From IMG/VR virus record IMGVR_UViG_3300043427_000994: a DNA stretch of 64,000 nucleotides; one strand, given 5' to 3'. Positions 12,700 to 35,259 of this stretch are shown piece by piece (position 1 is the first letter of the stretch; the number at the start of each line of letters is the position of its first letter). The notes below the pieces were generated by a model. The model did not search any database. It had not been told where the DNA came from and saw nothing but the letters and a program-made list of their open reading frames with translations. The position numbers and the translations under genes were made by a program. The DNA comes from a virus. Lineage: Duplodnaviria; Caudoviricetes.

Positions 12700-12728
12700 A
12701 TTATATATGTATGCTCAACAGAAGTCAA
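12700..12728 (-). promoter_or_regulatory. sigma70-type promoter for replication operon
   Basis: TTGACT-17 nt-TATAAT followed by AGGAG RBS. Confidence 0.85.
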
Positions 12729-12748: not shown

Positions 12749-12776
12749 AAAAAAAGGCCCCAAAGGGCCTTTTTAT
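12749..12776. terminator. bidirectional rho-independent terminator
   Basis: AAAAAGGCCC-CAAA-GGGCCTTTTT hairpin with A/T tracts on both sides. Confidence 0.9.
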
Positions 12777-12787: not shown

Positions 12788-15196
12788 TTATGCGGCAGGT
12801 GTAGAAATAGTATTGCCACCAGGTTCCGCTGCCGGCGCCGCCGCAGTTTTCATACTGGCTAGTTTATCTGCTTTCTTTAGAACGTTGTTTAATCTAGTCT
12901 TAATGTCATCTGGTAAAGTTTGAACTGCTTTTTCATCTTTAGCATATTTCTGTATGATTTCTAGATTTTTCAATAATTCTGCTTTGTCCGCTGGATCCAT
13001 TTGGGCTTCGGGACTCTTTAACCAATTATATAGAGCAGCCACACCGCCTGCTATTCCGAGGGTAATAAAAGCACCTCGTTTTGTAACTTTGCCTAGAACT
13101 TTTTTACCAAATCCTTTAAGTCTTTCCCAAGCAGAAGGCTTACCAGGTTCTGGTGCTGGTGTAGGTCCTGGTCCTGGTGTAGGTCCTGGTCCTGGTACTG
13201 GTAGACCCTTTCTCATCTTCTCAATGTCAAACGAAGAAAGTTTTTCTGAAGGGTTAGCACGATTAAAATATTGATCAGGTACACCAGGAACTTTTTCCCA
13301 AGTTTTGCCACCTACTCTAATAACTCCAGGCAACGGTGGTCCTGGATCAAGTGGGCCAGCCTCACTTAAAATTTCATTTTCGGATAACAATGTTAGTTGA
13401 AGTATAGATATTTGTTCACTGGGAGTAAAATCATTAATGTTTTCAAGTACAAGTTTTTTAAGGTCTTTAATAGATAGCTCGTCAATACTTTCGGCAATCT
13501 TATATTTGCCCATGATTCTTTCTACAACAGTTAATGCCTGTACCAATTGATTCTTGGCCAAAATTGCTTTTCCGTTTTCTAATGCTTTGATTAACTCTGG
13601 AGTAATTTTGCCAGTTTCGGGCATACCAGCCATCTTCTCAAATTGTTTAATTGCGTCTGCGGTCTCAGTTCCCATCTTACCGTCTGCGCCAAATCTAGGT
13701 AATTTAAAACCTAAACCTAGTAATAACTCTTGAACTTTTTTAACATCACCGCCGCCTGTAGTTGTTGTAGGATCTGTTTTAGTATCTGTCTTATTATCTG
13801 TTTTAGTATCTGTCTTATTATCTGTCTTAGCATCTGTATCTGTTTTAGTATCAGAACTAAATTGTGCTGGGAGATTAAGGGCACGATTTGCCAATTGTAA
13901 AATTTCAGGATCATCTGGGAAATCTGTTTTCAATCCAGCGGCATAGGTCTGTAATTCTTTGTATTCTGCAGCAGTTAATTCTTCACTTAGTGTTGTACCT
14001 TCAGCAATACGTTGTATACGAGCTATTAATTCGCTCATACTTTCAGGAACAACTTTTGATTGTCCAGATGTAGTGCCTGGTGCTGGAGATGTAACTTTAG
14101 GTTGATTAGCCTTGGCTAGTAATTCTTTTACTCTGGCCAATCTTTCTTCTTTGGATTTAGCAGTTCCGTCTTTGTTGTAATCTGCTGGAAACTTTTTCTC
14201 AGGTTCAGGCTTAGTTAAACTGTAGTCAACTTTGCCTTTTGTAGGATCTTGATTTCCTGGTTTAGCAGGGTTTAAAGTAGTAGTATCGGTTTTAGACAAC
14301 GCATCGGCTTTGGCCTTCTCGTCGGCTTTGTTTTTTTCTTCCACTGCTTTGATTGCGGCTACAATTTCTGCTTTAACTGCTTCAATTTCTTTTTGTGTTT
14401 CAGGATCTTGTTTTAGTTGATCAGACATGCTGTCAAATTTTAAAACTATAGAATTAATTTCGTCAATAATTTTTTTAAGTTCGGCATTGCTATTTTGCGC
14501 ACCACCAAATCCTTTGCCACTAGTTGTGCCGTCTGGATTGATAGTTACTCTTTCTTCAACGTCTTGATCAATAATTTCGTCTTGGAATTCGTTGATCAAT
14601 GATTCAAAAATACTTGATTCAGTTTTAAATTTAAATTTATCTGGGTTTAAACCAAAAAATGTTCCACTGCCTGAAGCGGCACTGTCGGAGCCACTAGGAC
14701 CAGCAGTTTTCATTTTTTCTACAGCGGCTTTTAATTGTGCTCCTAGATCTTTAAGTTTAGGAAGATTTTCTGTTTTAAATTTTTCGTACTTTTGCTTAGT
14801 TACAACACCTTGGCTTCTAGTTCTAAGATCTTGGTCGTATTGGCCTTTTTCGTCGCCTCTAAAAGCTCGTCCTAGTGCTGTAGAAGTTTTAGCATTATCG
14901 GGGATTAAGCCTAGGTCTGCTAGGGCACGATCGGATCTTTCGCTACCAGTGGCTCCTATGCTGATTCGTCCAGGACCACCCATTCCTTGATTTACGCTCT
15001 GTTTTCCAACAAAGCCTCCACTAATAGGATCATATAACCCAGGAAGTTTGTGTTTCCATGCTAGATCGTTAAGTATTTCAGCACGAGCTTGCTCATCATT
15101 TTCTTTGCCTTTTACAGCCGCTTCAACATCGTCTAATGATATTGCTTCAGCAAGTACTACTTCGTCTAGTTTGTTTAAAATTGCTCTTATATCCAT
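12788..15196 (-). CDS. large putative internal virion protein with peptidoglycan-binding domain
   Basis: PG_binding_1-like VKKVQELL..LG...GADGKMG.ET..AIKQFE; low-complexity linkers; many (I/L)xE sites; late promoter upstream. Confidence 0.7.
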   Translation of the reverse strand: MDIRAILNKLDEVVLAEAISLDDVEAAVKGKENDEQARAEILNDLAWKHKLPGLYDPISGGFVGKQSVNQGMGGPGRISIGATGSERSDRALADLGLIPDNAKTSTALGRAFRGDEKGQYDQDLRTRSQGVVTKQKYEKFKTENLPKLKDLGAQLKAAVEKMKTAGPSGSDSAASGSGTFFGLNPDKFKFKTESSIFESLINEFQDEIIDQDVEERVTINPDGTTSGKGFGGAQNSNAELKKIIDEINSIVLKFDSMSDQLKQDPETQKEIEAVKAEIVAAIKAVEEKNKADEKAKADALSKTDTTTLNPAKPGNQDPTKGKVDYSLTKPEPEKKFPADYNKDGTAKSKEERLARVKELLAKANQPKVTSPAPGTTSGQSKVVPESMSELIARIQRIAEGTTLSEELTAAEYKELQTYAAGLKTDFPDDPEILQLANRALNLPAQFSSDTKTDTDAKTDNKTDTKTDNKTDTKTDPTTTTGGGDVKKVQELLLGLGFKLPRFGADGKMGTETADAIKQFEKMAGMPETGKITPELIKALENGKAILAKNQLVQALTVVERIMGKYKIAESIDELSIKDLKKLVLENINDFTPSEQISILQLTLLSENEILSEAGPLDPGPPLPGVIRVGGKTWEKVPGVPDQYFNRANPSEKLSSFDIEKMRKGLPVPGPGPTPGPGPTPAPEPGKPSAWERLKGFGKKVLGKVTKRGAFITLGIAGGVAALYNWLKSPEAQMDPADKAELLKNLEIIQKYAKDEKAVQTLPDDIKTRLNNVLKKADKLASMKTAAAPAAEPGGNTISTPAA
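13157..13192. repeat. 2x18-bp tandem repeat encoding PGPGPT linker
   Basis: TGGTGTAGGTCCTGGTCC duplicated. Confidence 0.85.
13773..13852. repeat. 24-bp tandem duplication plus degenerate 12-mers (TDTK/TDNK linker)
   Basis: TCTGTTTTAGTATCTGTCTTATTA x2 followed by related units. Confidence 0.9.
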
Positions 15197-15221
15197 TTTG
15201 AATCCCCAAATTCTTATCTAG

Positions 15222-15228
15222 TATTTAT
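15222..15228 (-). promoter_or_regulatory. T4-like late promoter core (ATAAATA)
   Basis: GATAAATAC ~25 nt upstream of the 15196 start; same core recurs before other late genes. Confidence 0.65.
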
Positions 15229-15230
15229 CA

Positions 15231-15362
15231 GTGCTCACTTTAACTAACAAGGGTAGCGAATCCAGTTAGTAGCCCAGCAGCCGGACACATAACCCCAAAC
15301 GGTCCTAGGGTATGTTCCTTCCTTCATAAAATAGACCGCCTAGACCGCAGCCTAGACGAGCC
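15231..15362 (-). ncRNA. candidate structured non-coding RNA
   Basis: GC-rich intergenic island in AT-rich genome with stems CCCUAG/UUGGGG, GUCCGG/CUGGGC, ACUAAC/GUUAGU and repeated GCGGUCUA; no family recognised. Confidence 0.45.
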
Positions 15363-15393
15363 AAACATTCTATGAAAGTATCTAATATTTCTT

Positions 15394-16314
15394 TCATCTT
15401 AGACCTGCGATGCGAAGCATTTGTTGTAATAAACGATTATCTTTTTCGTGGTACTCGATACTTTCACGTTTTGTACGGCCAGTGCTTGGATCCCACTTTC
15501 CCGCGCCTGGATACTGTGCTCCAGTCATGTTCCAATTTGGGTTCTTAGCTCTCCAAGCATACTCATCTTGAGATGCTGTAGTAATATTAGTAGTTCCACC
15601 TGTTCCAGTTTTTACTTGTCCCGGAACTGTGCTTAATCCAGTGTCAGTGTTAACGCCTGGTTCAGCCTGTGTTGGCTGTCCGTCGGCTGCGGTAGCAGAC
15701 TGGGCATAACCACCTTGACTTTGTTGTGCTGGTGCGTATCCGCTTGCGCCACCTGCTGGTGCTGGAGCAGGTTCAGGTTCGGGAGTTGGTTGTGGAGTCT
15801 CTGCAGGTGGATTTGGTTTGTCTGCTTGCGGCTGAGGAGTGCCAAACGCTGGACTACTACTTTGAGCAGTTACTCCTAACGCATTTTTTTCTGGAGGAGG
15901 AGTAACTGCTGGAGTTGGCGCTGGCGTTGCCGGTGTTGCTTGTTGAGCCTGAGCAGGATTGGTTATTGTAGTAGCAGTTCCTGCTGTCTGAGAACCTTTT
16001 GCAGCATCAACGGCAGGTCCAAATTGTTGTTCAGCGGCTCGTGTCTGTGGTCCCATAATACCGTCTGCTTTAATTTTAGCACCAGCCTTGATTAATTCTT
16101 GCTGTCTTGCTAGTACCTGAGGATCTTTTTTAGCAGCCGGTTTAGCAGCCGGCTTAGCCGCTGTTGTTGGCTGTGGGGTTTTCATAGCAATAGCCTGTTG
16201 AGCCATTGCAGCCGGATCCATACCTGCGCCTTGCGGCCCTGGAGTTGTAACATTTCCTGGTTTTCCAATGTTACCTGTCTGATATTCTTGTATAAGTAAA
16301 TCTCTAATTTTCAT
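15394..16314 (-). CDS. putative internal virion protein, Pro/Ala/Gln-rich, with PG-binding-like segment
   Basis: leader MKIRDLLIQE; QQELIKAG..IKADGIMGPQT; C-terminal MLRIAGL. Confidence 0.65.
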   Translation of the reverse strand: MKIRDLLIQEYQTGNIGKPGNVTTPGPQGAGMDPAAMAQQAIAMKTPQPTTAAKPAAKPAAKKDPQVLARQQELIKAGAKIKADGIMGPQTRAAEQQFGPAVDAAKGSQTAGTATTITNPAQAQQATPATPAPTPAVTPPPEKNALGVTAQSSSPAFGTPQPQADKPNPPAETPQPTPEPEPAPAPAGGASGYAPAQQSQGGYAQSATAADGQPTQAEPGVNTDTGLSTVPGQVKTGTGGTTNITTASQDEYAWRAKNPNWNMTGAQYPGAGKWDPSTGRTKRESIEYHEKDNRLLQQMLRIAGLR

Positions 16315-16467
16315 TTAATGTTCTCCGTATGGATTTTTTGGTCTGTCAGTACCGTCGTCTTCTGGAAAAACTTCGTATTTTTCTTCCTTCGCTGGTTGAC
16401 TTATATCTTTCTTTAATTCTTCTTGAGCACGTTTAATGTAATCTGCTAGTGTTTTATCTAAGATCAT
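16315..16467 (-). CDS. 50-aa hypothetical protein (not in supplied track)
   Basis: manual translation MILDKTLADYIKRAQEELKK...PEDDGTDRPKNPYGEH; ATGA overlap with dps stop; fills the gap exactly. Confidence 0.7.
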   Translation of the reverse strand: MILDKTLADYIKRAQEELKKDISQPAKEEKYEVFPEDDGTDRPKNPYGEH

Positions 16468-16898
16468 TTTAATGTAGCCCTTAACATCCAACTGTGCTTG
16501 CGATGTGCGTCTTGACGACCTGCTAAAAAATCAGCAAGACCATGTTCTCCATTACGTTCAGCAATGTCAAACACTAGTTTAAAAATATTAGCCATCCTAT
16601 CAGAGTCTTCTAATAAGATTTCTGTCATTGATCTAGCATCTGGAATTTCAGTTTCGTCATCAATTTTTGATAACATTGAAAATCTTTCAAAACTGCCAGG
16701 AGTATAACTGCCTGCTTTGCGAATGTTTTCAGCAAAGTCATCAATACTACCATAGACTTCTTCGTAGATTCCGCCAAACAGTTCGTGATACTGTTGAAAG
16801 TTTTCGCCTTCTACGTTCCAATGAAAGTACTGTGCTTTTAGATAAAAACTAAATTCACTGGCAAAAGAAATTTTAAGTGCTTTGATTAATTCATCCAT
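16464..16898 (-). CDS. dps: Dps / ferritin-like DNA protection protein
   Basis: FHWNVEG..F...HELF...YEE...IDDFAE.IR and KH.WML ferroxidase motifs. Confidence 0.92.
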   Translation of the reverse strand: MDELIKALKISFASEFSFYLKAQYFHWNVEGENFQQYHELFGGIYEEVYGSIDDFAENIRKAGSYTPGSFERFSMLSKIDDETEIPDARSMTEILLEDSDRMANIFKLVFDIAERNGEHGLADFLAGRQDAHRKHSWMLRATLK

Positions 16899-16899
16899 T

Positions 16900-17130
16900 T
16901 TAACAAACCTGTAATATTCCGTAAATTCCTGTGACTAACATAGACTTTAATGCTATATCGTCTGCTTCACTATCTAATTTATCTGTTCTAATTAAATCTT
17001 CTAATAATTCTTTGGCTTCTGCTTGACCAATCTGACCATTTTGTAATGCTTCGGCGATCTGTAATGCTACTTGAGCACGTTCTGCGGCCCAACCTTTTCC
17101 TGAATTAACACAATTTAAAAGTTCTTGCAT
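16900..17130 (-). CDS. hypothetical protein
   Basis: 76-aa helical ORF in operon. Confidence 0.7.
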   Translation of the reverse strand: MQELLNCVNSGKGWAAERAQVALQIAEALQNGQIGQAEAKELLEDLIRTDKLDSEADDIALKSMLVTGIYGILQVC

Positions 17131-17522
17131 TAGAATCTCCCTAGCACTGCTTCACTGGCACGTTTAGCCTGTGTCTGCATAATTTTCTTTTTAATGTTAC
17201 AATATGTTTCTGTACCTTGGCTGTCTTTGCTACGTTTTACAAAATCACTAACAGTATCCTGTAAAGGTTTAACTAATTTTAAAACATCTTGTTGTCTAAA
17301 ACCTTTGCTTTCGCTGTACAACTGGAACCAAAGAATATCAGTTTCAATTTTTTCTGCTTGTGGAAGATGTGGCTTAGAACAATCTAAAGTTTCAACACTG
17401 TGTCTAACATCAATTATTTTAGCACTTTGATTGTCGTCCCAGAAACTAGGAATTATGCTTTTTATATTAGCACAGCCTGATAACGAAACAACAATAGCAG
17501 TTGACAATAAAATTTTTTTCAT
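17130..17522 (-). CDS. lipoprotein
   Basis: MKK + hydrophobic core + LSGC lipobox. Confidence 0.8.
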   Translation of the reverse strand: MKKILLSTAIVVSLSGCANIKSIIPSFWDDNQSAKIIDVRHSVETLDCSKPHLPQAEKIETDILWFQLYSESKGFRQQDVLKLVKPLQDTVSDFVKRSKDSQGTETYCNIKKKIMQTQAKRASEAVLGRF

Positions 17523-18704
17523 TTAAAAATCTTGACTTTTTGATTGTTTTAATTCTTGTGCGGCTTTGTTAATAGCCCCCCACTTCCCGCCCATTGGACC
17601 TGGAAAACCAGGATTAGGACCTTGAACTCCTAATTGTTTTGCAACCTGCTCTGGAGACATACCCTTGGCTAGTAATGGTCTTGCTTTGGCAAGCGTTTCA
17701 ATATATTCTGGTGTAGCACCGCCCTCACTTAGTGAATTTGACACACTTTCTTTTGGTACGCAGTTATTAACTCTTACACCACCTTTGACTTTGGTCTTAG
17801 GATTACCTATTTTCTTTCCAGACCAGCACTTAGGATCTAAACGTGTTTTAGTTGCCTTGGCTTCTGCTAGAAAATTTTGCTCTGCTTCTTGTAGGTAATC
17901 TAAGAAAGATTTCTTACCTTCTGTAGCAGGAGCATTAACCTGAGCCATTGCTCTATTGTAAGTTGCTTCTTTATCTTTATTGCCCATAGCATATAAATCT
18001 TTACCACTTGGCGCATTATTTGGATCTTGGGTAGTCATACGTTTAGATGTTATACCTTTAGCGTTTTTATTCATGCCTACAGTAGTGGTGCCCATGTTAT
18101 ACTCTGCGTCAGTTTCTAAAGGTTTACCAGTTTTATCGTATGTTTGAGAAGTGTTCAGTGGTCCAGCCATGTATCTTACAGTGATGTTTCCTGTAACTAG
18201 GTCATGTTCTTGACTTAGTCCACTAAAACTAGGGCTTCGATACATGATTGGTTTGTTATTTTTGTCAAATTTAAACAAGCCTTGACCGCTAGTGTGTTCT
18301 TTAGAACCGTCGGGATTAAGTTTAATTGATACACCGTCTCCCATGTCATTGGCGCCGGGCTGTAGTTGTACATTGGGCAATACAGGTGCTGTAGGAACTT
18401 GGAGATTAGGTTTAAAACCTGGATCTCCGGGTTTACCTTGTTCGCCTAAATCGTTGTCTTCTTTTTTACTAGAATTATCCGCAGTCTTAACGCCATACAT
18501 CTTAGCCACTGCTTTTTCATCGTATGGCCTAAAGTCGCTGAGTTTATCTCTAGTAGCACTACCGGCCGCAACAATTTTATCAGCAACTGTTTTTAATGTA
18601 TTGTTTTCATGGACAATAGACACGAAACGGCGCATATCATTTGCGCCTTCCACTTTGCGACTAGATGCTTTGTCTAGTGCTTGTAAGATTCGTTTCATGT
18701 CCAT
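17523..18704 (-). CDS. putative internal virion protein
   Basis: modular; contains CWSG.K....K.KGGVRVNNCVP module flanked by LAE/KES/LSE sites. Confidence 0.6.
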   Translation of the reverse strand: MDMKRILQALDKASSRKVEGANDMRRFVSIVHENNTLKTVADKIVAAGSATRDKLSDFRPYDEKAVAKMYGVKTADNSSKKEDNDLGEQGKPGDPGFKPNLQVPTAPVLPNVQLQPGANDMGDGVSIKLNPDGSKEHTSGQGLFKFDKNNKPIMYRSPSFSGLSQEHDLVTGNITVRYMAGPLNTSQTYDKTGKPLETDAEYNMGTTTVGMNKNAKGITSKRMTTQDPNNAPSGKDLYAMGNKDKEATYNRAMAQVNAPATEGKKSFLDYLQEAEQNFLAEAKATKTRLDPKCWSGKKIGNPKTKVKGGVRVNNCVPKESVSNSLSEGGATPEYIETLAKARPLLAKGMSPEQVAKQLGVQGPNPGFPGPMGGKWGAINKAAQELKQSKSQDF

Positions 18705-18708
18705 GGTG

Positions 18709-20331
18709 TTATCCGTTCAAACGTGTTAGGAATTGTTTCATACGAATCAACTCGGCAGATTCGGCAATCATGCTTTCTGACATTGAGCATTCTTTCATAC
18801 CATGTACTGGGCAAGATTCACCTTTTGGTGACTCGTTGCACTTACCTGAAGATTCTTTAACTTTTTCGTCTTTCTTAGCAAAAGGATTTTCTTTCTTATC
18901 AGCAATAGCCTTTTTCATTGTTTCTTTCTTGTCGCCGTCTTTGTCCATATCTAAGAAGTCTGGCTTACCTTTGCCTGCTTTCTTTTCAGCAACAACTTTT
19001 CTAACAATACTCTTAACTAGGTCTTGGTCTTCTTTAAATGCTGGATTTGTAGGACCAGGAGTTTTTTCACTCCACTCTTTACCTTTGTTTGGACCAGAAG
19101 TTACTTTAGGATACTTGCCAGTCTTTGGATCTTTCTTAGGAGCGGCTGTAGCACCATCTGGTGGACTCATCTCGTTTGTTGGCTCTGGTGAATTTAACTC
19201 GATTTCGCTTTTATATTTTCCGGCTTTAGCTCTTTTTGCGTAGACATCCTCATCGGGTTTTTCACCGGCTGTGTCCTTCTTCATTAAATTACTGACACCC
19301 TTTCCTATTTTTCTTCCTAATTTTGAAATAGGATCAGTTGGTTCAGGCATCTTAAATCCGCCAGCAGTTCCTAAAGATTCGTCAGTTTTCTTTTTCTTTT
19401 CTGGAAGACCTTTGTGTTTTGTACTGGCAAAGTCTTCAGCATCTTTCTTGCTCATGCCTTTAGCGGCTTTGGCAACTTCTTTGCTGGCTGGCTTTTCGCC
19501 TTTCTTGGCCGCATGTACCATACCCATAAATTTTTGTTGTGCTTTGCTCACAGCCTTTTCAACTACCTGAGTAAGAGCTTCCTTAATCATTTCGTCTTTT
19601 TGTTTTTTGCTCTTGGCTGCTTTTTCTGCTTTGGCAATCTTTTCTGCGGCTTCGTCAATCTCATCCTTAACACGGATGCTGGCCACAGTCCAACCTGGAT
19701 TATCACGCTTCATACGATCACGTACTTCACCTTGACTTTCGCCTTCGTCGGCAACAGTGGTAACGCCACGAGTTTTGTTATCTTTTTCAAGTTTGACAAA
19801 GTATTGTTTACGTTCTGATTTTTCTACTTTGCCTTTTTTCTTATCGCTGGCTCGAACACCGCTGGCTTCTATTTTGGCTTCGTCTAAATCTTCTTCTTTT
19901 TTGTCTTCGGCTTTTTTGCCTTTAACGTTTTTCTTAACAGCACCTTCTAATAGTGCCTGAAGTTTTTGTTCGTATGTTGTCATAGATTCATCTACCTTTT
20001 TATCATTTAATTCTTCTTCATCGTCCATGTCCGAGATTGTATCTGTTTTCACTACTTCATCATCTGCTTCATCGGTGATATCTTCAATACTTGATGCGGT
20101 AGTTCCACCGCCAAATTTCATTTGATATTCCATATAGTGATAAACAGAATCGAGATAATCAGCAGATTTAGTAATCTTAGCCTGTACCCATCCTTCAAGG
20201 TCTTGGTTTTCGTCAATCATCTGAAATAACTTCATAGAGTACTTTGCGGCTCTATAAAGCTCAGATTTTGCCATTTGACCTTCATGATCATCTACGGGTC
20301 TTGGCACTATTGGTTTAATCTCGTCATGCAT
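18709..20331 (-). CDS. putative internal virion/scaffold-like protein, Lys/Glu-rich
   Basis: EGQMAKSEL..LEGWVQAKIT module, KAVSKAQQKFMG module, DFLDMDKDGDKKE Ca-loop-like motif, many xxE sites. Confidence 0.6.
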   Translation of the reverse strand: MHDEIKPIVPRPVDDHEGQMAKSELYRAAKYSMKLFQMIDENQDLEGWVQAKITKSADYLDSVYHYMEYQMKFGGGTTASSIEDITDEADDEVVKTDTISDMDDEEELNDKKVDESMTTYEQKLQALLEGAVKKNVKGKKAEDKKEEDLDEAKIEASGVRASDKKKGKVEKSERKQYFVKLEKDNKTRGVTTVADEGESQGEVRDRMKRDNPGWTVASIRVKDEIDEAAEKIAKAEKAAKSKKQKDEMIKEALTQVVEKAVSKAQQKFMGMVHAAKKGEKPASKEVAKAAKGMSKKDAEDFASTKHKGLPEKKKKTDESLGTAGGFKMPEPTDPISKLGRKIGKGVSNLMKKDTAGEKPDEDVYAKRAKAGKYKSEIELNSPEPTNEMSPPDGATAAPKKDPKTGKYPKVTSGPNKGKEWSEKTPGPTNPAFKEDQDLVKSIVRKVVAEKKAGKGKPDFLDMDKDGDKKETMKKAIADKKENPFAKKDEKVKESSGKCNESPKGESCPVHGMKECSMSESMIAESAELIRMKQFLTRLNG

Positions 20332-20352
20332 GGTTAAAATCTCCTGATACTG

Positions 20353-20359
20353 TATTTAT
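20353..20359 (-). promoter_or_regulatory. T4-like late promoter core
   Basis: GATAAATAC followed by AGGAG RBS and start at 20331. Confidence 0.65.
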
Positions 20360-21780
20360 CGTTTAATGCTTCCGCCGGTCAGTAGATTTGCTCCTTTAAC
20401 ATCTAGAGCATTTTTAGCAGTACCGTCTTTATTTTTAAAGGTTTTTCCAGGTTTGTTTTTATATACCGCACCTACTCCTACACTGGCAGCACTAGTAGCG
20501 CCAGCAGTGGCAGTTTCGTCAAACTTTTCAATACCGCGGCTCTGTACCCCACCTTTTTTACGTTTAGCAGCCAATTCTTCTAAACCGTGACGTACTTGTT
20601 CTAAGTTCTGTTCTAAACCCATAAACATTCCGCCTTTGGCTAATTTAGTAATCTGTAACCACATGCCTAAATCATCGCTTTCGGCCATCTGTGCTAGTTC
20701 TTGTAACTGCTTACGTGTTTGTAAAATACGTCCTTTTAGTGTCATAGGATTGGCTTTTTCGTGTCCATGTATCATAGGATCCATAGGATCGTCTGTGGCA
20801 GCAATAGGTGTTTCTTTAACAGATTGTTGAGATTTTTTATCTTTAGGATAAGCAGTATCTCCGTATTTAACTTTATCATTAACTGGACTTTGTCCCTTAA
20901 ATGCCGCTTTAATTTTTTCTAACGTTCCTGAACTATTGTCTTGTTGTTCGTGGGTAAGTTGATCAGCAACAGTTTCTTGCATTTGTCCCATTTGTACGGC
21001 TTGAGCAGCCAATCTAGGAGGAATACCCTGTTTAACTAATTCTGCTTGAACTTGTTGTTCGCTCATACCTTTGTCAAGTAAGGCTTTAGCACGTTTTGCC
21101 AGAGCCATCATATCTATTGCGCCACCTTCTGCTAGAGGATCTAATTGTCTTCCGCTGGCATATTTTTCCCAGTGTAAATGAGGCCCTGTACTAAATCCAG
21201 TACTACCAACATCACCGACACGCTCTCCTTTTTTAACTTCGTCGCCAGGTTTAACTGCTATTCTAGACAAATGCATAAATTTATGTTTTATTCCAGCAGT
21301 TGTAACTAGTTCAACTGTATTACCTGCCGAGCCCAACATTCCGGCAAATGTTATTTTGCCATCGTTAGTGGCAACTACAGGAGTACCTGTAGGTGCGGCA
21401 ATGTCAACTCCAGGATGGGGTATCCTATTACCTTTCGGACCAGTAACAATTCTACCATAGGGGCCGCTAATTCTGCCCTTAGTTGGCATTATTTCGCTGG
21501 AACTAGATGCTGTATCTTTACTAGTAGCGTCTTTGCTAGTAGTGTCTTTGCTAGTAGTGGTAGCATCTTTACCGGGACTATCTTTACTAGGTTCTTTATC
21601 TCCAAGTGAGATTCCGCTGGTATCTGCTGTATATTTTTTAATAGCGGCTCGAGTAAATGGTCCCATAAAACCGTCTGCTCCGGTAGGACCTAAATTATAG
21701 CCTTTAGATATTAAAAATTTCTGTATTTTTTGAGTTGCTAAATTAAATAAACCTTCATTAATTATATCTAGTACTTTCAT
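20356..21780 (-). CDS. peptidoglycan-binding + M23 metallopeptidase protein
   Basis: N-terminal PG-binding (IQKFLISKGY.LGP.GADG.MGP.T); HPGVD, HFMH and STGPHLHWE M23 motifs; leader MKVLDIINE. Confidence 0.85.
   Translation of the reverse strand: MKVLDIINEGLFNLATQKIQKFLISKGYNLGPTGADGFMGPFTRAAIKKYTADTSGISLGDKEPSKDSPGKDATTTSKDTTSKDATSKDTASSSSEIMPTKGRISGPYGRIVTGPKGNRIPHPGVDIAAPTGTPVVATNDGKITFAGMLGSAGNTVELVTTAGIKHKFMHLSRIAVKPGDEVKKGERVGDVGSTGFSTGPHLHWEKYASGRQLDPLAEGGAIDMMALAKRAKALLDKGMSEQQVQAELVKQGIPPRLAAQAVQMGQMQETVADQLTHEQQDNSSGTLEKIKAAFKGQSPVNDKVKYGDTAYPKDKKSQQSVKETPIAATDDPMDPMIHGHEKANPMTLKGRILQTRKQLQELAQMAESDDLGMWLQITKLAKGGMFMGLEQNLEQVRHGLEELAAKRKKGGVQSRGIEKFDETATAGATSAASVGVGAVYKNKPGKTFKNKDGTAKNALDVKGANLLTGGSIKR
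21507..21570. repeat. degenerate 15-bp repeats (SKDTT/SKDAT linker)
   Basis: GTCTTTGCTAGTAGY units. Confidence 0.7.
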
Positions 21781-23471
21781 TTCTTTTTTCCTTGACGCAT
21801 GTTAATCTGCCAGTGTGCTAGTTGTTTCTTACGTGGACTAGCACTGTCACTGCTACGTATCTTCTTTAACTGTGCTATACTCATACCTTTACTAATGCCG
21901 TGACGCTTACTATCTCCCTTATCTTGAGGATTTTTTCCATCAGCAAAGTTTTCATCTACATTATATGTTGGATCAACTTTTTGACGTCTCATACCCTTAG
22001 GCTGTTTAGGATCAACAGGATCTATATCTGTAGTGGTAAGTCCAGTTTTCATCAAAGCATCGATGTATTTGTGTTCTTCTTCCTCGCTGCCAAACGAGAT
22101 AATTGTGCTCGGAGGTCCTTTTCCAAAATCGTGTTTACCTAACCCTTTAAGATTGCTAATGTGCATTCCTAATTTGTACCAGTCATAGACATCACTGACA
22201 TCTACTTTTACAGTACCTTTTGGCATTGTAGGTTTAAATTCTGGACCATACGGAGGATCATTTACATGACGATCTTCTTCTTTTTTCTTTCCTTGACAAT
22301 GAGCACGTTGACTAAATCCTTTAGGATTGTTACAGTCAATACTACGTTTATATTTGTCACTCCATCCTTCATTAAATTGATCAGGGTGTTTTCTTCCCCA
22401 CCAACGTAATAATACACCTGCTAGAGCATTTGCTTCATTTTCATCTGGACTACCAGTTTCACCATTAAGTTCACGTGCTTCGTTTTGTTTGCGGTGTACT
22501 AGTTCGTGCGCCAGTGTACGCATGATGTCCATTTGATGACGATCTTTAACGGTAACAACAATGTTCTGTGTTTCTGGATCAAAATAACCTAACGCACTAG
22601 TCCCACTATCGGAAACTAGTTTAATACGTGGAGCCTGCTCTATTTCTAATAGTTTGATTGCCCATAGAGCAAATTCTTTAATACGTTGTTTTTTATCAGA
22701 AGTCCATGCTTCGTTGATTTGTTCTCCAACACCACCACCGTCGCCACTACCACCTTCTCCAGATGATGCTCCAATAGCACTGCTGTACCCAGTATTCACT
22801 CCGTACAGTCCATAAGGACCGGGCCCCCATGCCGCACCATATACACGTTTAGATTTACGCTTTTTCTTTTTACGTTCTTCTAATGCCGATACATCACCGT
22901 TTCCTGTAATGTGATAGGCATCAAATGTTACATCGGGATATTCTTGTTCTAATTCTTTGAATACACGCAGGTTAGTCATGGAATCGTCGTAAAGACTTAC
23001 TTGATTAAATTTTCCAGTATCTAAATAACGTCTTACCCATACTGCTTTCTTTTCAGCAGGACCCCCCTTGCCAGGCAAATTGCCTGCTCGGTGTACATGA
23101 ATCTTGCTCATGTCTATGCCGTGATCGGCAAATGTCTGTAGGAAAGTTTCTTTATCGTCAAAGTCTGCTCGGGCAGTTAACATGATAACCTTGCCGCGAG
23201 TATGATCTAATATTGTTTTTAATTCGTCAAGCATAGGACCAATTGGCTCACTTTCTTGACGAAACTTTTCAGCATTGCGGAACTCGCCAAAATCGTAGTC
23301 TTCGCCGTCTTGAAGTTCGTAGTTATTAAATTCTTGGTTAGTTAGAGAGCGCACAACTTCGCCATCTTTAACAACATTAATTTTAGCAGTCGTGTGGAAC
23401 AGTGTATCGTCTATATCAAATATAGTTAAGATACCTTTTGGCCTATCTTTGACAAAATCACTTGCTCTCAT
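21777..23471 (-). CDS. multidomain protein: HAD phosphatase + zincin HExxH domain + small modules
   Basis: FDIDDTLF, LTAR, K, YDDS HAD motifs I-IV; LAHELVH..Q...ENEAN; domains separated by INE/FNE/VDE. Confidence 0.8.
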   Translation of the reverse strand: MRASDFVKDRPKGILTIFDIDDTLFHTTAKINVVKDGEVVRSLTNQEFNNYELQDGEDYDFGEFRNAEKFRQESEPIGPMLDELKTILDHTRGKVIMLTARADFDDKETFLQTFADHGIDMSKIHVHRAGNLPGKGGPAEKKAVWVRRYLDTGKFNQVSLYDDSMTNLRVFKELEQEYPDVTFDAYHITGNGDVSALEERKKKKRKSKRVYGAAWGPGPYGLYGVNTGYSSAIGASSGEGGSGDGGGVGEQINEAWTSDKKQRIKEFALWAIKLLEIEQAPRIKLVSDSGTSALGYFDPETQNIVVTVKDRHQMDIMRTLAHELVHRKQNEARELNGETGSPDENEANALAGVLLRWWGRKHPDQFNEGWSDKYKRSIDCNNPKGFSQRAHCQGKKKEEDRHVNDPPYGPEFKPTMPKGTVKVDVSDVYDWYKLGMHISNLKGLGKHDFGKGPPSTIISFGSEEEEHKYIDALMKTGLTTTDIDPVDPKQPKGMRRQKVDPTYNVDENFADGKNPQDKGDSKRHGISKGMSIAQLKKIRSSDSASPRKKQLAHWQINMRQGKKK

Positions 23472-23673
23472 TTTTTCCTACCGGTGGTTCACCTGTTAAG
23501 TACGGTTTACTAAACCATAATTGGAACCACTCATCTGTTCCAGGTTTAATGTTATGCTTCTTTTCTAATTCTCTTTTTTCTGTGCCTGTAATACTTATGT
23601 TACTGCCGCCGTAAGGCTGGTAACCTTTAAATTCTGAAATGCCTGCTAAACGTTTAAGATCTTCTATGTTCAT
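23458..23673 (-). CDS. small putative internal virion protein
   Basis: MNIEDLKRLAGISE leader; IKPGTDEWFQLWF. Confidence 0.65.
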   Translation of the reverse strand: MNIEDLKRLAGISEFKGYQPYGGSNISITGTEKRELEKKHNIKPGTDEWFQLWFSKPYLTGEPPVGKNESK

Positions 23674-24790
23674 TATCTTTATTTCTATGCTGTCTATATG
23701 GGTTTATAAAATCTTCTTCCCATGTACCTTCTTTAACTGCCCAGGCAAAATCTATAATGCGCCCTAGGCCGCCACCTATTTCACCAAACAAATCATCAAG
23801 ATGTAACACTTCGTCAAATGTAGCACCAGTACCTTCCATTATTAAACTAACAATCCAGTCGTTATCGCTGTTATCAATGGCTTCGTCGTATTTGGACCAA
23901 AGTTTGGGATTCTCTACAATGCGTTCGCCTAATCTACCTAACTTTTTAACTAAAGAAAATTCACGATCCATGGGCTCGGCGTCTTCCGTCAAACCATATT
24001 TTTTCATTAGAGCATATATTGGGCTACCTGGCGCAGGATTTTTTCCTGACTTTAAAAAAGCATTGATCATTCCCAATTCATGTTTCTTACGCTCAGCATC
24101 TTCTCCAATGTCGTCATTGGATTTTTTCTGTTTGACTTCGCCCTTCTTTTCAGAACGTTTGGCTTCTTTTTCTGCTTTTGCTCTGTCTCTTTCTTGTTGT
24201 TTTCTTAATTTTTCTTCTTCGGCCTGCATGTAAGGTAACATATATTCTCGAACAAGATCAAAATAAGGACGACCAGCAACTGTAGTATCTGCGGGTACAC
24301 CGGAAAATTTTTCAAAGTCTTGAGGATTGTTTTCTTTAACTGCTTTGCGAACTAGACTTGCTTCACTCTTACGATCTGCTTTTTCCCATTCTATTCCGGC
24401 AAATTTATAATAACCGTGAGGACCTTCAATGCCATTTTGTTTTTGTATCATTGGTACGTAAATGTTTTTATCCTCAGGATCTGTAACTATACGTAAAATT
24501 GTGTTTTCACTGTGTTCCTTAAAAACCATAACAGCCAATGTAAACCAACTCTGTTCCGCAACTAAATGTCCTTCTATTTCAGGATACACAGTTTTCATTG
24601 CTTCAATTTTAATTTCAAAAGGTAATGGATCTTTAGGACCTTCGGTACTTTGGTTAGTGCCAATATACCAATGGGGAAACTTAGAAGCAACTATCCAAGC
24701 ATCTCGATGACCATAGTGAGGAGGATTAAACCTACCAAACATAATAGCAACATCATTGTTTTTATTTTCAAATAATTGTCTTAATCTCAT
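23654..24790 (-). CDS. HxGH (cytidyltransferase/NMNAT-like) nucleotidyltransferase
   Basis: MFGRFNPPHYGH, DPLPF..K, SEASLVR motifs; leader MRLRQLFE. Confidence 0.85.
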   Translation of the reverse strand: MRLRQLFENKNNDVAIMFGRFNPPHYGHRDAWIVASKFPHWYIGTNQSTEGPKDPLPFEIKIEAMKTVYPEIEGHLVAEQSWFTLAVMVFKEHSENTILRIVTDPEDKNIYVPMIQKQNGIEGPHGYYKFAGIEWEKADRKSEASLVRKAVKENNPQDFEKFSGVPADTTVAGRPYFDLVREYMLPYMQAEEEKLRKQQERDRAKAEKEAKRSEKKGEVKQKKSNDDIGEDAERKKHELGMINAFLKSGKNPAPGSPIYALMKKYGLTEDAEPMDREFSLVKKLGRLGERIVENPKLWSKYDEAIDNSDNDWIVSLIMEGTGATFDEVLHLDDLFGEIGGGLGRIIDFAWAVKEGTWEEDFINPYRQHRNKDNEHRRS

Positions 24791-24791
24791 A

Positions 24792-25937
24792 TTATTCCCC
24801 AGGGGTCCATCGTTTTCTAGGTACTAGTTTTACATTACCAAATCTTTTATCACTGCCAGCATAGCGAACGCGACCTTCTCCTTCGGTGTCCCAAATATCC
24901 CCTTGTTCTCCTTCAATCTGATCGATAATATCATCTTTCATATCTTGTATCATTTTCACCAGTGTAAATATTGCGCTAAGGGAGCCGTTGTATTGGGTGT
25001 TAAGAGTTTGTATTTTTTGTTGTTTAGGTTCACTGACTTTGCTAGTAGTGAGCCAATTAAAAAACATCTGTTCACTAATATTATCTAATTGTTTGGCTTT
25101 AGCAGTTTGATTTACAAACTTATATAAGATTTCTTTTAAATCACTAAGTCCTGCTTGCGGTTGTAGGAAGCCGTCAATTTGTTTGCCATGTTGTTTTAGA
25201 TATTTTTCTACATCTGTAACAGCATTGGTATCTACTGATATTGGTTTCTTATTGTATATTGGACCTAATACAATCAAGTTGCCTGTTTTATTAAATTCTT
25301 CAAAACTATCTTTAGGTTTTTGTTCTGAGTCTGGCGCACCAAAGCGATCAAACTCAGCATGTCCAACAACCATAACTTCTGCTTTGGCAATTTTCTTTCC
25401 TAATTCACTGTTCTTACGAACATGATAGCAGGTTTTTGATTTTGGATTAGGACAAAAAGTATAAACACCTTCTGAATCTAATTGTGGCGGATCTAAAAAT
25501 AATCCGTCAGCATAAACGAATCCTACAAAATCTTTCGGTGTGGCTTGATCAAACAGCGGATATAAACTAGAAAACTTTTCAGCAAATTGATCTCTCTGAG
25601 CTTTTTCTTCAGGAGTTTTAGGATTTCCACTTTGATTAGAAATAAAATCTTTAACTTCTTCTGGGCTAGTACTTTTAGCACCTCGAGCCCAACCATTGTG
25701 TCCTGCTAAGATAAGAGGACCACCTTTGGTTTCACGTCCCCAATAAATTTGAGGATTACCGTCCCACTTCATGCGAATACTTTCAGCACCTTGTTGGGTA
25801 GCAAAGTCTTTGATGTGCGATAATGCTTCCATGGTGCCCTCGCTACCATAAAAGAATACTAGATCTTCTAGGTGATTAAATGTCCGACCTAATTGTTTAG
25901 TGGCGGTTGATTCTCTAAATAGTTCTCTAAGCCTCAT
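24792..25937 (-). CDS. ligase-like covalent nucleotidyltransferase (HLED/KWDG family)
   Basis: HLEDL, KWDG (motif I KxDG), ADGLF, EGEGRV (motif IV-like), VKLV (motif V-like); leader MRLRELFRE. Confidence 0.65.
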   Translation of the reverse strand: MRLRELFRESTATKQLGRTFNHLEDLVFFYGSEGTMEALSHIKDFATQQGAESIRMKWDGNPQIYWGRETKGGPLILAGHNGWARGAKSTSPEEVKDFISNQSGNPKTPEEKAQRDQFAEKFSSLYPLFDQATPKDFVGFVYADGLFLDPPQLDSEGVYTFCPNPKSKTCYHVRKNSELGKKIAKAEVMVVGHAEFDRFGAPDSEQKPKDSFEEFNKTGNLIVLGPIYNKKPISVDTNAVTDVEKYLKQHGKQIDGFLQPQAGLSDLKEILYKFVNQTAKAKQLDNISEQMFFNWLTTSKVSEPKQQKIQTLNTQYNGSLSAIFTLVKMIQDMKDDIIDQIEGEQGDIWDTEGEGRVRYAGSDKRFGNVKLVPRKRWTPGE

Positions 25938-26776
25938 TACGTATTCCTTGATTGCTTAGGATTTTTACGATCTTTCCACCGTTTGTCAGTAGAACACCAG
26001 TAACGTCCGTGATTGCCTTCAATGAGGCCTCTCATGTATGAAAACCAATCCACTGTGTTTAATTGGTTAACATCTTCTTTTTTAATAGTATCAACTTTCC
26101 AATTTGGGTCTTCTTCTGCTCTAGCCAACAATGCCTCTGATTCGTCTTGCGGTAAAGCAGTAAGTACACTTTCTACACTGCTTAGGTCTTCAGCATTGCT
26201 ATTGTCACCGATAAGAAGTTTTGCAATTTCGTCAAGATCGTCTGTGACAAAATCTCCCTTTTTACCTTCTGCGTTTCTGCTAAACAATCCCTGCCACGCA
26301 GACCACATGTAACCTTTGCTTTTAGCCAATAGGGCTAGAATTAATTGTTTATGAACTCCCTTGTATGGACTGTCGTTGGGAATACGATGTGTATGAAACT
26401 TAGAAATTTTTTCAGCATTAGGAGTTACCATAATATCAACTTGGTGGAATTCGTCGCCTACTGGCACTCGAACGTGAACATTAATTCCACTCTGTGTTGT
26501 ATCTAATCCTTTTCCGGAAATGTAATCTTTTAATGCTCGACGACCTTCTTTGGCATCTTTGGCTTTAAAATATTCTAATACAGATTTTTCATCTACAATG
26601 ACATCCATGTCTCCACTTTGTTTACCTGGAGTTGGAGTGGCAGCACTGCCTACAGGAATAATAGTAATACCTGTTCCTTCTAAAGCACCATTAACAACAT
26701 TGGTAATTTTAGGAACATTTTTATGATCAAAAGGTGTTACATCTGGAAAGGCATTACCGCCTTCTACTAAAATCAT
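25937..26776 (-). CDS. DNA polymerase beta-superfamily nucleotidyltransferase
   Basis: VGSA...SGDMDV and QVDIM (GS, DxD, third Asp). Confidence 0.8.
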   Translation of the reverse strand: MILVEGGNAFPDVTPFDHKNVPKITNVVNGALEGTGITIIPVGSAATPTPGKQSGDMDVIVDEKSVLEYFKAKDAKEGRRALKDYISGKGLDTTQSGINVHVRVPVGDEFHQVDIMVTPNAEKISKFHTHRIPNDSPYKGVHKQLILALLAKSKGYMWSAWQGLFSRNAEGKKGDFVTDDLDEIAKLLIGDNSNAEDLSSVESVLTALPQDESEALLARAEEDPNWKVDTIKKEDVNQLNTVDWFSYMRGLIEGNHGRYWCSTDKRWKDRKNPKQSRNT

Positions 26777-27117
26777 TTATCACTCCTATCGTAGGTGCCT
26801 TTTTCTATTCTTTCTTTTTCATTATGAAACATCTTTTCGGCTAATTCTTTGATTTCAGCATCAGAAAAAATATCTTTAGGATTTTTTCTAATTTTAAATT
26901 TTTTACAGTATGAATCAATTCCTTTTTTAATACAACCGTGAAAGTGATCTTGTTGACAACCTTGTCCACTTTTTAATTTATGTTTCATATCCGATATAGC
27001 AGGATATAGAATTTTTCTATAAAACAAAGGATCGTTATTCATAAAGAACTGTAAGTCGTCAACTACATTAACGTCTTTAAGTTCATCAATTTTATCTGAA
27101 ATTTCTTTTAATAGCAT
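26773..27117 (-). CDS. hypothetical protein
   Basis: start moved to MLLKEIS, adjacent to upstream stop. Confidence 0.65.
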   Translation of the reverse strand: MLLKEISDKIDELKDVNVVDDLQFFMNNDPLFYRKILYPAISDMKHKLKSGQGCQQDHFHGCIKKGIDSYCKKFKIRKNPKDIFSDAEIKELAEKMFHNEKERIEKGTYDRSDK

Positions 27118-27118
27118 T

Positions 27119-27475
27119 TTACCATTTCCTACATGACCAGTATCTTGCTTTAGTGCGTGGACCCGGATTGTCACAATTATGACGAGCACGGAAACTGCGT
27201 CTACGAGCAGGATTAGATTTTTTGATTTTCATATTTGGGTCGCCAAAATTTACTTTGACGATGTTACCCCGAGGATTACGAACATAGACTTTGAACTTTT
27301 TAACATCGCCCTGCATGGGTTTTCCAAGAGGTACTTTTCGTCCGCGATACTCTGCTTCTTCCAATGTTTCTTCTACATTGCCGTAAAGCAGATAAAAATC
27401 ATCACCGTGGTAGGTTTCTTCTAGCCAATTTGTTACGGCACTTAGAGATTCAAATAGTTCTTTAAAGGTTTTCAT
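27119..27475 (-). CDS. small basic putative internal virion protein
   Basis: leader MKTFKELFE; AEY.GRKV..GKP...KKFKVYV...V.FG...ARRRSFRARH.C...ARYWSC. Confidence 0.7.
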   Translation of the reverse strand: MKTFKELFESLSAVTNWLEETYHGDDFYLLYGNVEETLEEAEYRGRKVPLGKPMQGDVKKFKVYVRNPRGNIVKVNFGDPNMKIKKSNPARRRSFRARHNCDNPGPRTKARYWSCRKW

Positions 27476-27498
27476 AGCGTAAACACTCGTTTATAGAG

Positions 27499-27505
27499 TA
27501 TTTAT
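27499..27505 (-). promoter_or_regulatory. T4-like late promoter core heading the internal-protein array
   Basis: CATAAATAC ~24 nt upstream of the 27475 start. Confidence 0.65.
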
Positions 27506-27522: not shown

Positions 27523-28173
27523 TTAAATTTCACTGTGGGTCACTAATTCTTCAACTTTTACTACTTTATTGCCTAAATAAAGGCGGCAAATGCTGAGAGT
27601 TTTAGCATCTGCTACATAAATGTACCCACCGTATCTATAAGTACTTGCGTTTATTTTTATCTTAGACATCTTTTCAGCCCACTCTCTAAATACTGATTCG
27701 TCATTGAGCGGCTTTAAAGTAACCTTGTATTTGTGGGTATAGTCTTTTCTAATTATTATCTTAGGTCTACTAAGCAGTAATTCTTTAGTGGTTACGTTTT
27801 CTGGTTTAGAAATTTCTCGCAGTGTAATATTGTTAATGGAAGAAATTTTATCTACAATTTCTTCATTGTTAACATATACTCCTAGTATTGAACCTTCTAC
27901 TCTCAGCGTATAATCATCTACTGTAGTTAGTAATTCAATTATTTTACCAGCAACTATAACGTCACCAACAACAGCATATTTTTTGCTCCAAGTAAAGCCA
28001 ACCCTAATCTTTCCTTCCATATCTGAGTCAAACTTATTACTCAACTCAGTCAAGGATCGTTGGGTATCGACTAGTTTTTTTCCTCTAAAAAAGGTTGCTA
28101 CAGGCGTCAGTATTGACACCTTGTACGCATACCTATCAAAGAATAATTTATTAGTTTTCTTCAAGAATGGCAT
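27523..28173 (-). CDS. hypothetical protein
   Basis: 216-aa ORF downstream of clpA. Confidence 0.75.
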   Translation of the reverse strand: MPFLKKTNKLFFDRYAYKVSILTPVATFFRGKKLVDTQRSLTELSNKFDSDMEGKIRVGFTWSKKYAVVGDVIVAGKIIELLTTVDDYTLRVEGSILGVYVNNEEIVDKISSINNITLREISKPENVTTKELLLSRPKIIIRKDYTHKYKVTLKPLNDESVFREWAEKMSKIKINASTYRYGGYIYVADAKTLSICRLYLGNKVVKVEELVTHSEI

Positions 28174-35172: not shown

Positions 35173-35195
35173 TTGTAAGTCATCCTTTGACGAAG

Positions 35196-35202
35196 TATTT
35201 AT
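35196..35202 (-). promoter_or_regulatory. T4-like late promoter core
   Basis: GATAAATAC heading the operon that ends in lysis genes. Confidence 0.6.
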
Positions 35203-35259
35203 CTTGATCATTTTTATATCTTATCAGTTCTGTTTTTTTGTAGATTGTTAAATATTTTG

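Follow-up and report, generated by a model that had tools for sequence, protein, structure and literature searches.

A late-type gene block with T4-like N-terminal leaders in a distant T4-like giant phage: candidate head-packaged cargo

Do the genes at positions 12,788 to 27,475 of the virus record IMGVR_UViG_3300043427_000994 (IMG/VR; Caudoviricetes) encode proteins that a phage loads into its head and sends into the host with its DNA? We analysed the whole 64,000-nucleotide (nt) stretch, referred to here as the window, in which 16 minus-strand genes (g01-g16) form a block of ~15 kb made up of three putative late operons closed by terminators. The question is raised by the N-termini of many of the encoded proteins, which resemble the capsid-targeting sequence (CTS) of the T4 internal proteins, a leader whose processing by gp21 was reportedly described by Mullaney and Black in 1996. 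The original prediction, made from the letters of the window, held that more than ten head-packaged proteins are encoded here, some of them processed as polyproteins.

We put at roughly 0.6 the probability that the block is a variable, late-type locus of CTS-tagged, protease-processed, head-packaged cargo that is delivered with the DNA. The sequences appear to be best explained by the mechanism known from T4, here in a novel and far larger version with enzymatic cargo, multi-module precursors and one late block. Direct evidence comes from those sequences, which are conserved and modular, from the promoter motif, from relatives that encode the protease family and from the modelled folds of g03 and g04; packaging, cleavage and injection of the block proteins are what we infer from it.

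Leaders and junctions of the block proteins

All nine N-termini on which the original prediction rested were found on the minus strand, in g01-g06, g08, g15 and g16. The typical leader follows the pattern M-[KRD]-x-[RF]-x-[LI]-[FLI]-x-E, and lengths in the block range from 5 to 33 residues. The T4 N-termini, read from NC_000866, are MKTYQEFIAE/A in IPII and IPIII, MAKINELLRE/S in gp24, MLKEQLIAE/A in gp22 and MELITELFDE/D in Alt (a slash marks the cleavage-type site); their counterparts in the window are MKTFKELFE/S (g01), MRLRELFRE/S (g04), MRLRQLFE/N (g05), MKVLDIINE/G (g08) and MKIRDLLIQE/Y (g15). T4 propeptides are 10-19 residues long, residues 4 and 7 chiefly govern targeting and residues 8 and 10 processing, and the CTS has been proposed as an evolutionary device to load varied proteins (PMC9026906).

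Propeptides resembling those of T4, which are hydrophobic at positions 4 and 7 and end (L/I)-x-E, were found with 9-10 residues in g01, g04, g05, g08 and g15 and, among orthologues, in g02 and g07; g06, g10 and g16 have longer forms, g03 has a five-residue form, and g09 and g11-g14 have none. By class, seven leaders resemble the T4 internal-protein tag, three are of a longer MDIR/MNIE type and that of g03 has five residues only. The figure of more than ten was therefore overstated. A leader is present in 10/16 block genes and five to six genes have none; with g09, g11, g12, g13 and g14 leaderless, there are about ten candidates, not sixteen.

The strict leader pattern occurs in 5 of the 16 block genes and in 1 of the 50 genes elsewhere in the window (Fisher p=0.0025), for a pattern drawn up with the data in view. 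The one match outside is a 184-amino-acid (aa) protein (34618-35172, minus strand) that starts MRDILEIIE/N and has ATAAATAC 23 nt 5' of its gene. At the level of gene families, across 80 related loci, 8/57 block families fit compared with 2/97 outside (p=0.006). In G001, a 270-kb relative, the strict pattern is found in 3 of 255 genes, two of them inside the orthologous block. Two leader genes lie distant from the block on the same contig (L065), MKSFNEYLTE/S at 26542-27108, with ATAAATAC 17 nt 5', and MRAKEFIDE/S at 35126-35482, which suggests that the cargo set extends beyond the block. A rigid position-specific scoring matrix built from the g04 and g05 leaders was too narrow and missed MKTFKELFE because the register shifts. 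A signal peptide was rejected as the explanation of the shared N-termini, since only g11 has one.

The comparative data support the view that the leader is a transferable, conserved add-on, independent of the fold of the cargo and ending in hydrophobic-x-Glu. Orthologues retain it, and the linker behind it varies in length and sequence. The Leu residues of the leader stay in place although up to five synonymous codons encode them, which indicates selection on the peptide and not on the RNA; a shared nucleotide motif was rejected as the origin of the similar N-termini. In cyanophage S-RSM4, the homologue of g04 (DUF6267 in Pfam) and the adjoining cytidylyltransferase, a homologue of g05, begin right at the domain and are leaderless. 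In the Methylophilales phage Melnitz the g04 and g05 homologues and their neighbours start MKKFSEIIE (the g05 homologue), MKKFSELTSELIE, MQGFKTFLSE and MKNFKNHIAE.

An exhaustive HMMER search for DUF6267 gave 417 clusters at 50% identity, the best 150 of which were used; 80 of these start with Met and contain the domain motif. Nine of the 80 representatives begin at the domain, and among the 71 with at least six residues upstream, 56 (79%) show hydrophobic-x-Glu no more than 12 residues before the domain, compared with 16.5% of control windows from the same proteins (binomial p ~1e-30). The motif is also present at 16/21 junctions where DUF6267 is fused behind other domains, some of them g03-like. 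Within the g03 family, some members start M-GGKVF and others have 4-13 extra residues ending L-L-E, L-F-E or I-M-E before GGNVF. The leaders stand apart in AF2 models as well, with residues 1-11 of g04 below 50 in a model of pLDDT 94.9 and residues 1-6 of g03 below 50 in a model of pLDDT 85.5.

Sites of this type were also said to separate domains within the proteins, and QINE254 and QFNE368 in g07, PLAE217 in g08 and LINE203 in g16 are all present and conserved in orthologues. The g08 orthologue of G001 consists of a leader, MRLIDIINE/G, and the C-terminal module only. The M23 insertion in the window's g08 ends with PLAE/GG, matching the INE/G of that leader, and BLAST aligns the leader to the internal junction. 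Between g07 and its G001 orthologue homology continues through QINE/AW, and beyond QFNE/ the two have different mini-modules. The window's mini-module has ~30 residues (WSDKYKRSIDCNNPKGFSQRAHC..). In some relatives it sits between the g04 leader and the g04 domain, flanked by ITE/ and VNE/. It is a lone 39-aa open reading frame (ORF), MKTFKQFQE/GWS.., adjoining the terminase gene in cyanophage SynMITS9220M01, and part of a protein encoded beside the major capsid gene in cyanophage P-TIM68. Of 35 distinct sequence contexts, 34 have hydrophobic-x-Glu ahead of the mini-module.

Module boundaries at such sites fit a polyprotein logic. The earlier claim of polyprotein processing thus stands as far as the layout goes, module junctions coinciding with cleavage-type sites in g07 and g08; cleavage at these junctions would be the predicted consequence. 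The mini-domain itself is basic and mobile, with the consensus WSxKYK[KR]SI[DN]CxNPKGFSQ[RK]AHCxG[KR]KK (window 22270-22370, g07 residues 368-400; L129:2486-2605; L128:1982-3103). It has 2,740 matches in short proteins and is common across T4-like cyanophages, where a CTS-like KTFKEF[LM] often comes after it. It may be a DNA-binding head peptide.

Head genes, late promoters and the proposed route

The window has ~38% G+C, no tRNA genes and almost all of its genes on the minus strand, and it encodes a family-B DNA polymerase, a T4 DsbA-like protein, tail-fibre and baseplate-like proteins and a 7-deazaguanine cluster. A megablast search of the block against 50,697 phage records gave no match, so that no cultured phage corresponds at the DNA level, and tblastn with g10 and g03 found none among cultured phages. 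Orthologues of g04 with 65-73% identity occur on more than 226 uncultured viral contigs, the g04 protein of the window is also on record on a contig of 381,653 bp, and the stretch is present in public DNA runs from freshwater and lake metagenomes. In three of five large related contigs we found a prohead protease of the T4 gp21 type (Peptidase S77, E ~1e-27) together with a Gp23-type major capsid protein; G001 has the orthologous block, the S77 protease (E 8e-27) and the Gp23 capsid protein on one contig. The capsid protein of these relatives is 66-70% identical to those of the cultured jumbo phages Sinorhizobium Phosso, Vibrio 2.275.O, Pseudomonas PA5oct and Serratia BF. These identities and the gp21-type protease point to a distant T4-like giant phage.

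The head modules bear leaders and sites of the same kind. In G001 the scaffold starts MLDALKSLFE/, and a 79-aa gene at the gp67 position starts MILRELFYF, a leader also found on some g04 orthologues. In the capsid protein an L-x-E lies ~41 residues before GVQPM, as YLSE/S in G001 and FLVE/N in PA5oct, and T4 has LTE/A ~45 residues before GVQPM, which we take to be the maturation site of its capsid protein. An L-x-E kept near the T4 cut position argues that the lineage has kept the protease's preference for hydrophobic-x-Glu. In both G001 and PA5oct the scaffolding protein ends ..RRLAG[LI]K (scaffold L089:7919-9010), and the C-terminus of g15 (15394-15411) reads ..MLRIAGLR and the N-terminus of g06 (23632-23673) MNIEDLKRLAGI. 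These two are the only matches to [RKQ][LIM]AG[LIV] in the 19.7 thousand amino acids encoded in the window, and both are terminal. By mimicking the scaffold, the terminal RLAG-like motif may offer a second means of incorporation. A general role as a further tag was rejected for the C-terminal tail RLAG[IL]: it has three C-terminal matches in 2,908 ORFs of the related loci and is not enriched.

The resemblance to the T4 proteins IPI, IPII, IPIII and Alt lies in the N-terminal propeptide (about 10-19 residues in T4), with the ELFxE core of Alt or the MKT[YF].E[FL] of IPII and IPIII and an (L/I)-x-E end. It lies also in variable gene content, probable late expression, the precedent of one T4 cargo, Alt, that is a large enzyme, and a set of lineage head genes (seen in relatives) comprising the S77 protease, a gp22-type scaffold and a gp23-type capsid protein. 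The mature parts of the block proteins, in contrast, are unrelated in sequence to the T4 internal proteins. Pfam and PHROG scans found no internal-protein or Alt family among them, so that they fall outside the IPI, IPII, IPIII and Alt families and have the targeting logic alone in common. The block also differs in having many more cargo genes, gathered in 15 kb and coding mostly for enzymes (Pol X-like, ligase-like, HxGH nucleotidyltransferase, HAD, M23), in multi-module precursors with internal sites, in leaders of 5-33 residues and in the promoter core (G/C)ATAAATAC. Packaging is established for the T4 proteins and predicted for those of the block.

The heptamer ATAAATA, reported earlier at 27499, 20353 and 15222, is indeed present at all three positions, on the minus strand and 21-25 nt 5' of ATG codons. 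The late-type promoter motif ATAAATAC would thus serve operon 1 (g01-g08) from 27498..27505, 23 nt 5' of the g01 ATG and with its extended context kept in G001, operon 2 (g09-g15) from 20352..20359 and unit 3 (g16) from 15221..15228, all on the minus strand. A terminator-like hairpin follows g15 (15336..15359, minus strand) and a strong one, 3' of g16, ends the block (12751..12774, minus strand). ATAAATA is rare, with 10 copies seen in the window against 26 expected from shuffles and 34 seen in G001 against 126 expected, and in both almost every copy lies 17-28 nt 5' of a start codon. The genes behind it include tail-fibre, minor-tail and baseplate matches and giant, probably structural genes, and the three block sites with their flanks are conserved in G001. 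T4's exact TATAAATA was rejected as the promoter here, as the window has only two copies, below chance. Hence the assignment of late promoters survives as regards a late-type motif common to the block and the tail genes, while the form is (G/C)ATAAATAC, a variant, and not T4's TATAAATA. The ATAAATA(C) motif presumably acts through T4-like late transcription factors. Directly beyond the block terminator stands a near-consensus sigma70-type promoter (11/12; 12700-12728, minus strand), and behind it a gene for a T4 DsbA-like late-transcription accessory protein (weak Pfam match; 12415-12675, minus strand).

The conserved flanks, Clp-like on one side and DsbA-like on the other, enclose 6.3-16.7 kb in 20 relatives, with 5-14 of the window's families inside, and additional leader-type genes in relatives' loci start MKIKELFE, MRAYEFITE, MRAHEFITE and MKIYELLE. 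T4 internal-protein genes are poorly conserved among T4 relatives (PMC9026906). The GenBank record of PA5oct, whose capsid protein is 66% identical to that of G001, flags 93 of 461 proteins genome-wide as detected in virions by electrospray tandem mass spectrometry (ESI-MS/MS). Three leader-type proteins are flagged, EST35_0150 (MKINDIITE, in the head module at the gp67 position), EST35_0238 (MKIKDILVE) and EST35_0380 (MRLNEINLIE), and two, EST35_0271 and EST35_0422, are not. This analogy gives weak support to packaging; the PA5oct paper does not discuss N-terminal processing.

On the reading that we prefer, (G/C)ATAAATAC, as a variant of the T4-type late promoter, would drive the three operons as virion parts are made. 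The N-terminal propeptide (5-33 residues) of about ten products would then bind the prohead scaffolding core, like the T4 CTS, and a gp21-type (S77) prohead protease would cut after hydrophobic-x-Glu, removing the leader and separating the modules of g07 and g08. The mature proteins would remain in the head with the DNA and exit via the tail at infection. Their predicted functions form three groups: nucleic-acid end repair (Pol X-like g03, ligase-like g04, HxGH nucleotidyltransferase g05 and HAD g07), the cell wall (M23 peptidase g08 and the peptidoglycan-binding g15 and g16) and basic small proteins or peptides (g01 and the Cys mini-domain).

Competing explanations and points against packaging

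The block might instead encode ordinary late cytoplasmic enzymes for DNA repair or finishing before packaging and for lysis-related wall work, with N-termini that serve expression or folding through codons, mRNA or a helix. Genes for replication and recombination do surround the g04 and g05 homologues of Melnitz and of T4-like cyanophages, non-structural genes are driven by late promoters too, and the leader codons are A/T-rich (AGA, TTA, GAA). However, the Leu residue is kept across five synonymous codons, hydrophobic-x-E is seen again at fusion junctions within proteins, which play no part in translation initiation, head-module proteins bear this type of leader, and the existence of leaderless homologues means that the domain needs no leader; we therefore consider this account unlikely. 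A little less likely, in our judgement, is that the leader does bring the proteins into the prohead core, where they act as assembly-only scaffold accessories that are degraded or expelled before DNA packaging, with no injection. The T4 scaffold gp22 has a similar N-terminus (MLKEQLIAE) and is degraded by gp21, as noted in the T4 record. T4 gp67 and gp68 are likewise reduced to peptides. Scaffold-like terminal motifs are seen in g06, g09 and g15. Proteins rich in hydrophobic-x-E sites would, moreover, be fragmented. Yet g03, g04, g05 and g08 are predicted folded enzymes with intact catalytic motifs and without an evident assembly role, and the conserved sites cluster at domain boundaries and not throughout. 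T4 Alt and the internal proteins, which carry such propeptides, are retained in the head and injected (PMC9026906, PMC3012670).

Least probable of all seems a leader that is a tag for a nearby machine, whether an unfolding or degradation module or a modifying enzyme of the kind that acts on ribosomally synthesised and post-translationally modified peptides. Directly upstream of the block (28151-31683, minus strand) lie genes for a DnaJ-like protein (271 aa), a peptide deformylase (168 aa) and a ClpA/ClpB-like double AAA+ ATPase (745 aa, ~82% identical in relatives), and 49 of 80 related loci have the Clp-like gene beside the block. Against such a tag, similar leaders occur in T4, the PA5oct head module, Melnitz and small ORFs of cyanophages, where linkage to Clp was not examined; the leaders are degenerate and not one fixed peptide; and Pfam and PHROG scans of the block found no radical-SAM or other maturase. 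A link of this proteostasis module to the unfolding or refolding of packaged cargo is conceivable.

Several observations count against head packaging itself. The window's own head genes lie beyond the 64 kb, and it is in relatives alone, with g04 proteins 65-73% identical, that the protease is seen. Inspection of the data came before the leader patterns were drawn up. Hydrophobic-x-Glu is a weak motif: 16.5% of 12-residue windows taken at random contain it, and folded domains hold conserved copies too, as at residues 77-79 of g05. Some leaders depart from the T4 rules, that of g03 having five residues and that of the window's g07 ending in Asp (MRASDFVKD), and position 4 is often Arg and not aromatic. 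Five to six block genes are leaderless, one of them coding for a lipoprotein, and the large acidic or neutral block enzymes are unlike the small basic internal proteins of T4, if not unlike Alt, itself a large enzyme. The presence of three of five leader proteins in PA5oct virions is weak evidence (binomial p ~0.06).

Predicted products, neighbouring genes and implications

In the first operon, g01 (27119..27475; all block genes are on the minus strand) encodes a basic protein of 118 aa with pI 10 and a C-terminal Cys motif (phrog_7595). g02 (26773..27117; 114 aa) starts MLLKE/, or MLLRELDE or MRIRELLE in orthologues, and belongs to no known family. Behind the leader MILVE/GGN, g03 (25937..26776; 279 aa) resembles a Pol X-like nucleotidyltransferase of the Pol-beta superfamily, with G43, D56xD58 and D114 invariant and S54-G55 (GS motif) conserved. 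The top Foldseek matches of its model are Pol lambda and Pol beta (E ~1e-7, probability 1.0, TM ~0.45-0.5 over ~205 columns), and on motif and predicted fold we assign it a Pol X-like nucleotidyltransferase core. g04 (24792..25937; 381 aa; leader MRLRELFRE/STATKQ), a ligase-like covalent nucleotidyltransferase, has K57, D59, G60, G355 and K370 invariant and E354 in at least 90% of 59 diverse sequences, K57 belonging to a KxDG motif. The 19 best VIA-align matches of its model are all RNA or DNA ligases, at modest Z scores of 5-6.9, and Foldseek against the PDB gave no significant match. Its motifs I (KxDG), IV (EG) and V (K) and its predicted fold place it in the ATP-dependent ligase and capping-enzyme superfamily. 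In several uncultured phages (P0125, P0173, P0184, P0221, P0227 and P0272) g03-like Pol X-type and g04-like ligase-type domains are fused, which argues that the two enzymes act together.

g05 (23654..24790; 378 aa) is an HxGH protein of the cytidylyltransferase/NMNAT type, with the LFE of its leader in 35 of 36 orthologues. The short g06 (23458..23673; 71 aa) starts MNIEDLKRLAGISE/ and contains an RLAGI motif like the C-terminus of the scaffolding protein. g07 (21777..23471; 564 aa) joins a HAD phosphatase-like domain (DxDxT), QINE/, a HExxH peptidase-like domain (DUF6782), QFNE/, the 30-aa Cys mini-domain and a C-terminal region. phmmer searches of PDB sequences with g03, g05 and g07 returned nothing meaningful. 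g08 (20356..21780; 474 aa) has, by Pfam, a peptidoglycan-binding domain and an M23 peptidase between its leader and PLAE/GG, followed by its C-terminal module.

The second operon opens with the Lys-rich g09 (18709..20331; 540 aa; DUF3008), which has no N-terminal leader and has conserved internal VDE/S and LLE/G. g10 (17523..18704; 393 aa), of no known family, has the long leader MDMKRILQALD...IVHE33/N in 11/11 orthologues. g11 (17130..17522; 130 aa) is a predicted lipoprotein with a signal peptide and an LSGC lipobox and is probably not head cargo. It is followed by the acidic, leaderless g12 (16900..17130; 76 aa), the ferritin/Dps-like g13 (16464..16898; 144 aa; PF00210, E 1e-19), whose fold begins at residue 5 and which is thus leaderless, and g14 (16315..16467), a small leaderless ORF of 50-58 aa with an uncertain start. 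g15 (15394..16314; 306 aa) is Pro/Ala-rich, with a weak peptidoglycan-binding match and the scaffold-like C-terminus given above. The sole gene of the third unit, g16 (12788..15196; 802 aa), has the leader MDIRAILNKLDEVVLAE17/A in 7/7 orthologues, a PG_binding_1 domain and a hydrophobic segment near the C-terminus.

Elsewhere in the window, a 3,091-aa ORF (46113-55388, minus strand) has a counterpart of 3,835 aa in G001 with ATAAATAC upstream; its N-terminus has a GTGDD-type motif in common with an adjoining 191-aa protein, and it is probably a giant virion fibre or baseplate protein. A gene for an 86-aa lipoprotein (MKKLLLLVPIIFLTGC), distinct from the second lipoprotein g11, overlaps that of a 156-aa membrane protein beside a weak glycoside-hydrolase-19-like protein (32536-33263 and 33266-33952, minus strand); together they look like a spanin pair with an endolysin.

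A bolder proposal can also be made. The capsid would be pre-loaded with a complete nucleic-acid end-repair kit (Pol X-like, ligase-like, HAD and HxGH) and with cell-wall enzymes, freed by the prohead protease from tagged or polyprotein precursors, and the incoming genome or host tRNAs would be healed and sealed within seconds, before phage expression, as a counter-defence against nicking, restriction and anticodon nucleases. The kit would be widespread in environmental T4-like phages, because these enzymes carry the same tags in many divergent clusters. We offer this tentatively, as an idea more doubtful than probable.

Parallels exist in other systems. The Dar system of phage P1 (DarA, DarB, Hdf, Ulx, DdrA/B) consists of head-packaged anti-restriction proteins that are ejected to protect the incoming DNA. 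Like the block as we read it, it comprises proteins that are taken up by the head as this is assembled; the P1 proteins themselves are unrelated. The virion of African swine fever virus carries the repair enzymes Pol X, ligase and AP endonuclease, and bacterial LigD combines a ligase, a polymerase and a phosphoesterase. A minimal Pol X-type enzyme, an ATP-dependent ligase-type enzyme and an end-healing phosphatase are common to these and the block, a likeness at the level of folds only, with homology to superfamily at most.

We found no literature on DUF6267, or on CTS-like leaders in cyanophages or this jumbo-phage clade, beyond T4 reviews. In phiKZ-like giants (phiKZ, 201phi2-1, SPN3US) a T4-related protease processes dozens of proteins inside the head, cutting after Glu, the propeptides have redundant sites, and enzymes (a virion RNA polymerase) are delivered with the DNA; cleavage is at S/A-x-E, by gp175 or gp245 (PMC5694885, PMC10052503, PMC9026906). 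These phages form a separate lineage, with a small rather than a hydrophobic P3 residue and non-homologous proteins, and no inner body is implied for the block.

If the block is indeed packaged, a genome sequence could tell which proteins a T4-like phage injects, the rule being a late promoter together with an N-terminal leader and hydrophobic-x-Glu junctions. In this abundant freshwater lineage the injected set would greatly exceed the three internal proteins and Alt of T4, both in size and in its share of enzymes. The leaders and cleavable linkers would also be natural devices for loading foreign proteins into phage heads. Finally, a time and place of action would be assigned to DUF6267, its HxGH partner and the mini Pol X, proteins widespread in marine and freshwater T4-like phages for which roles have so far been lacking.

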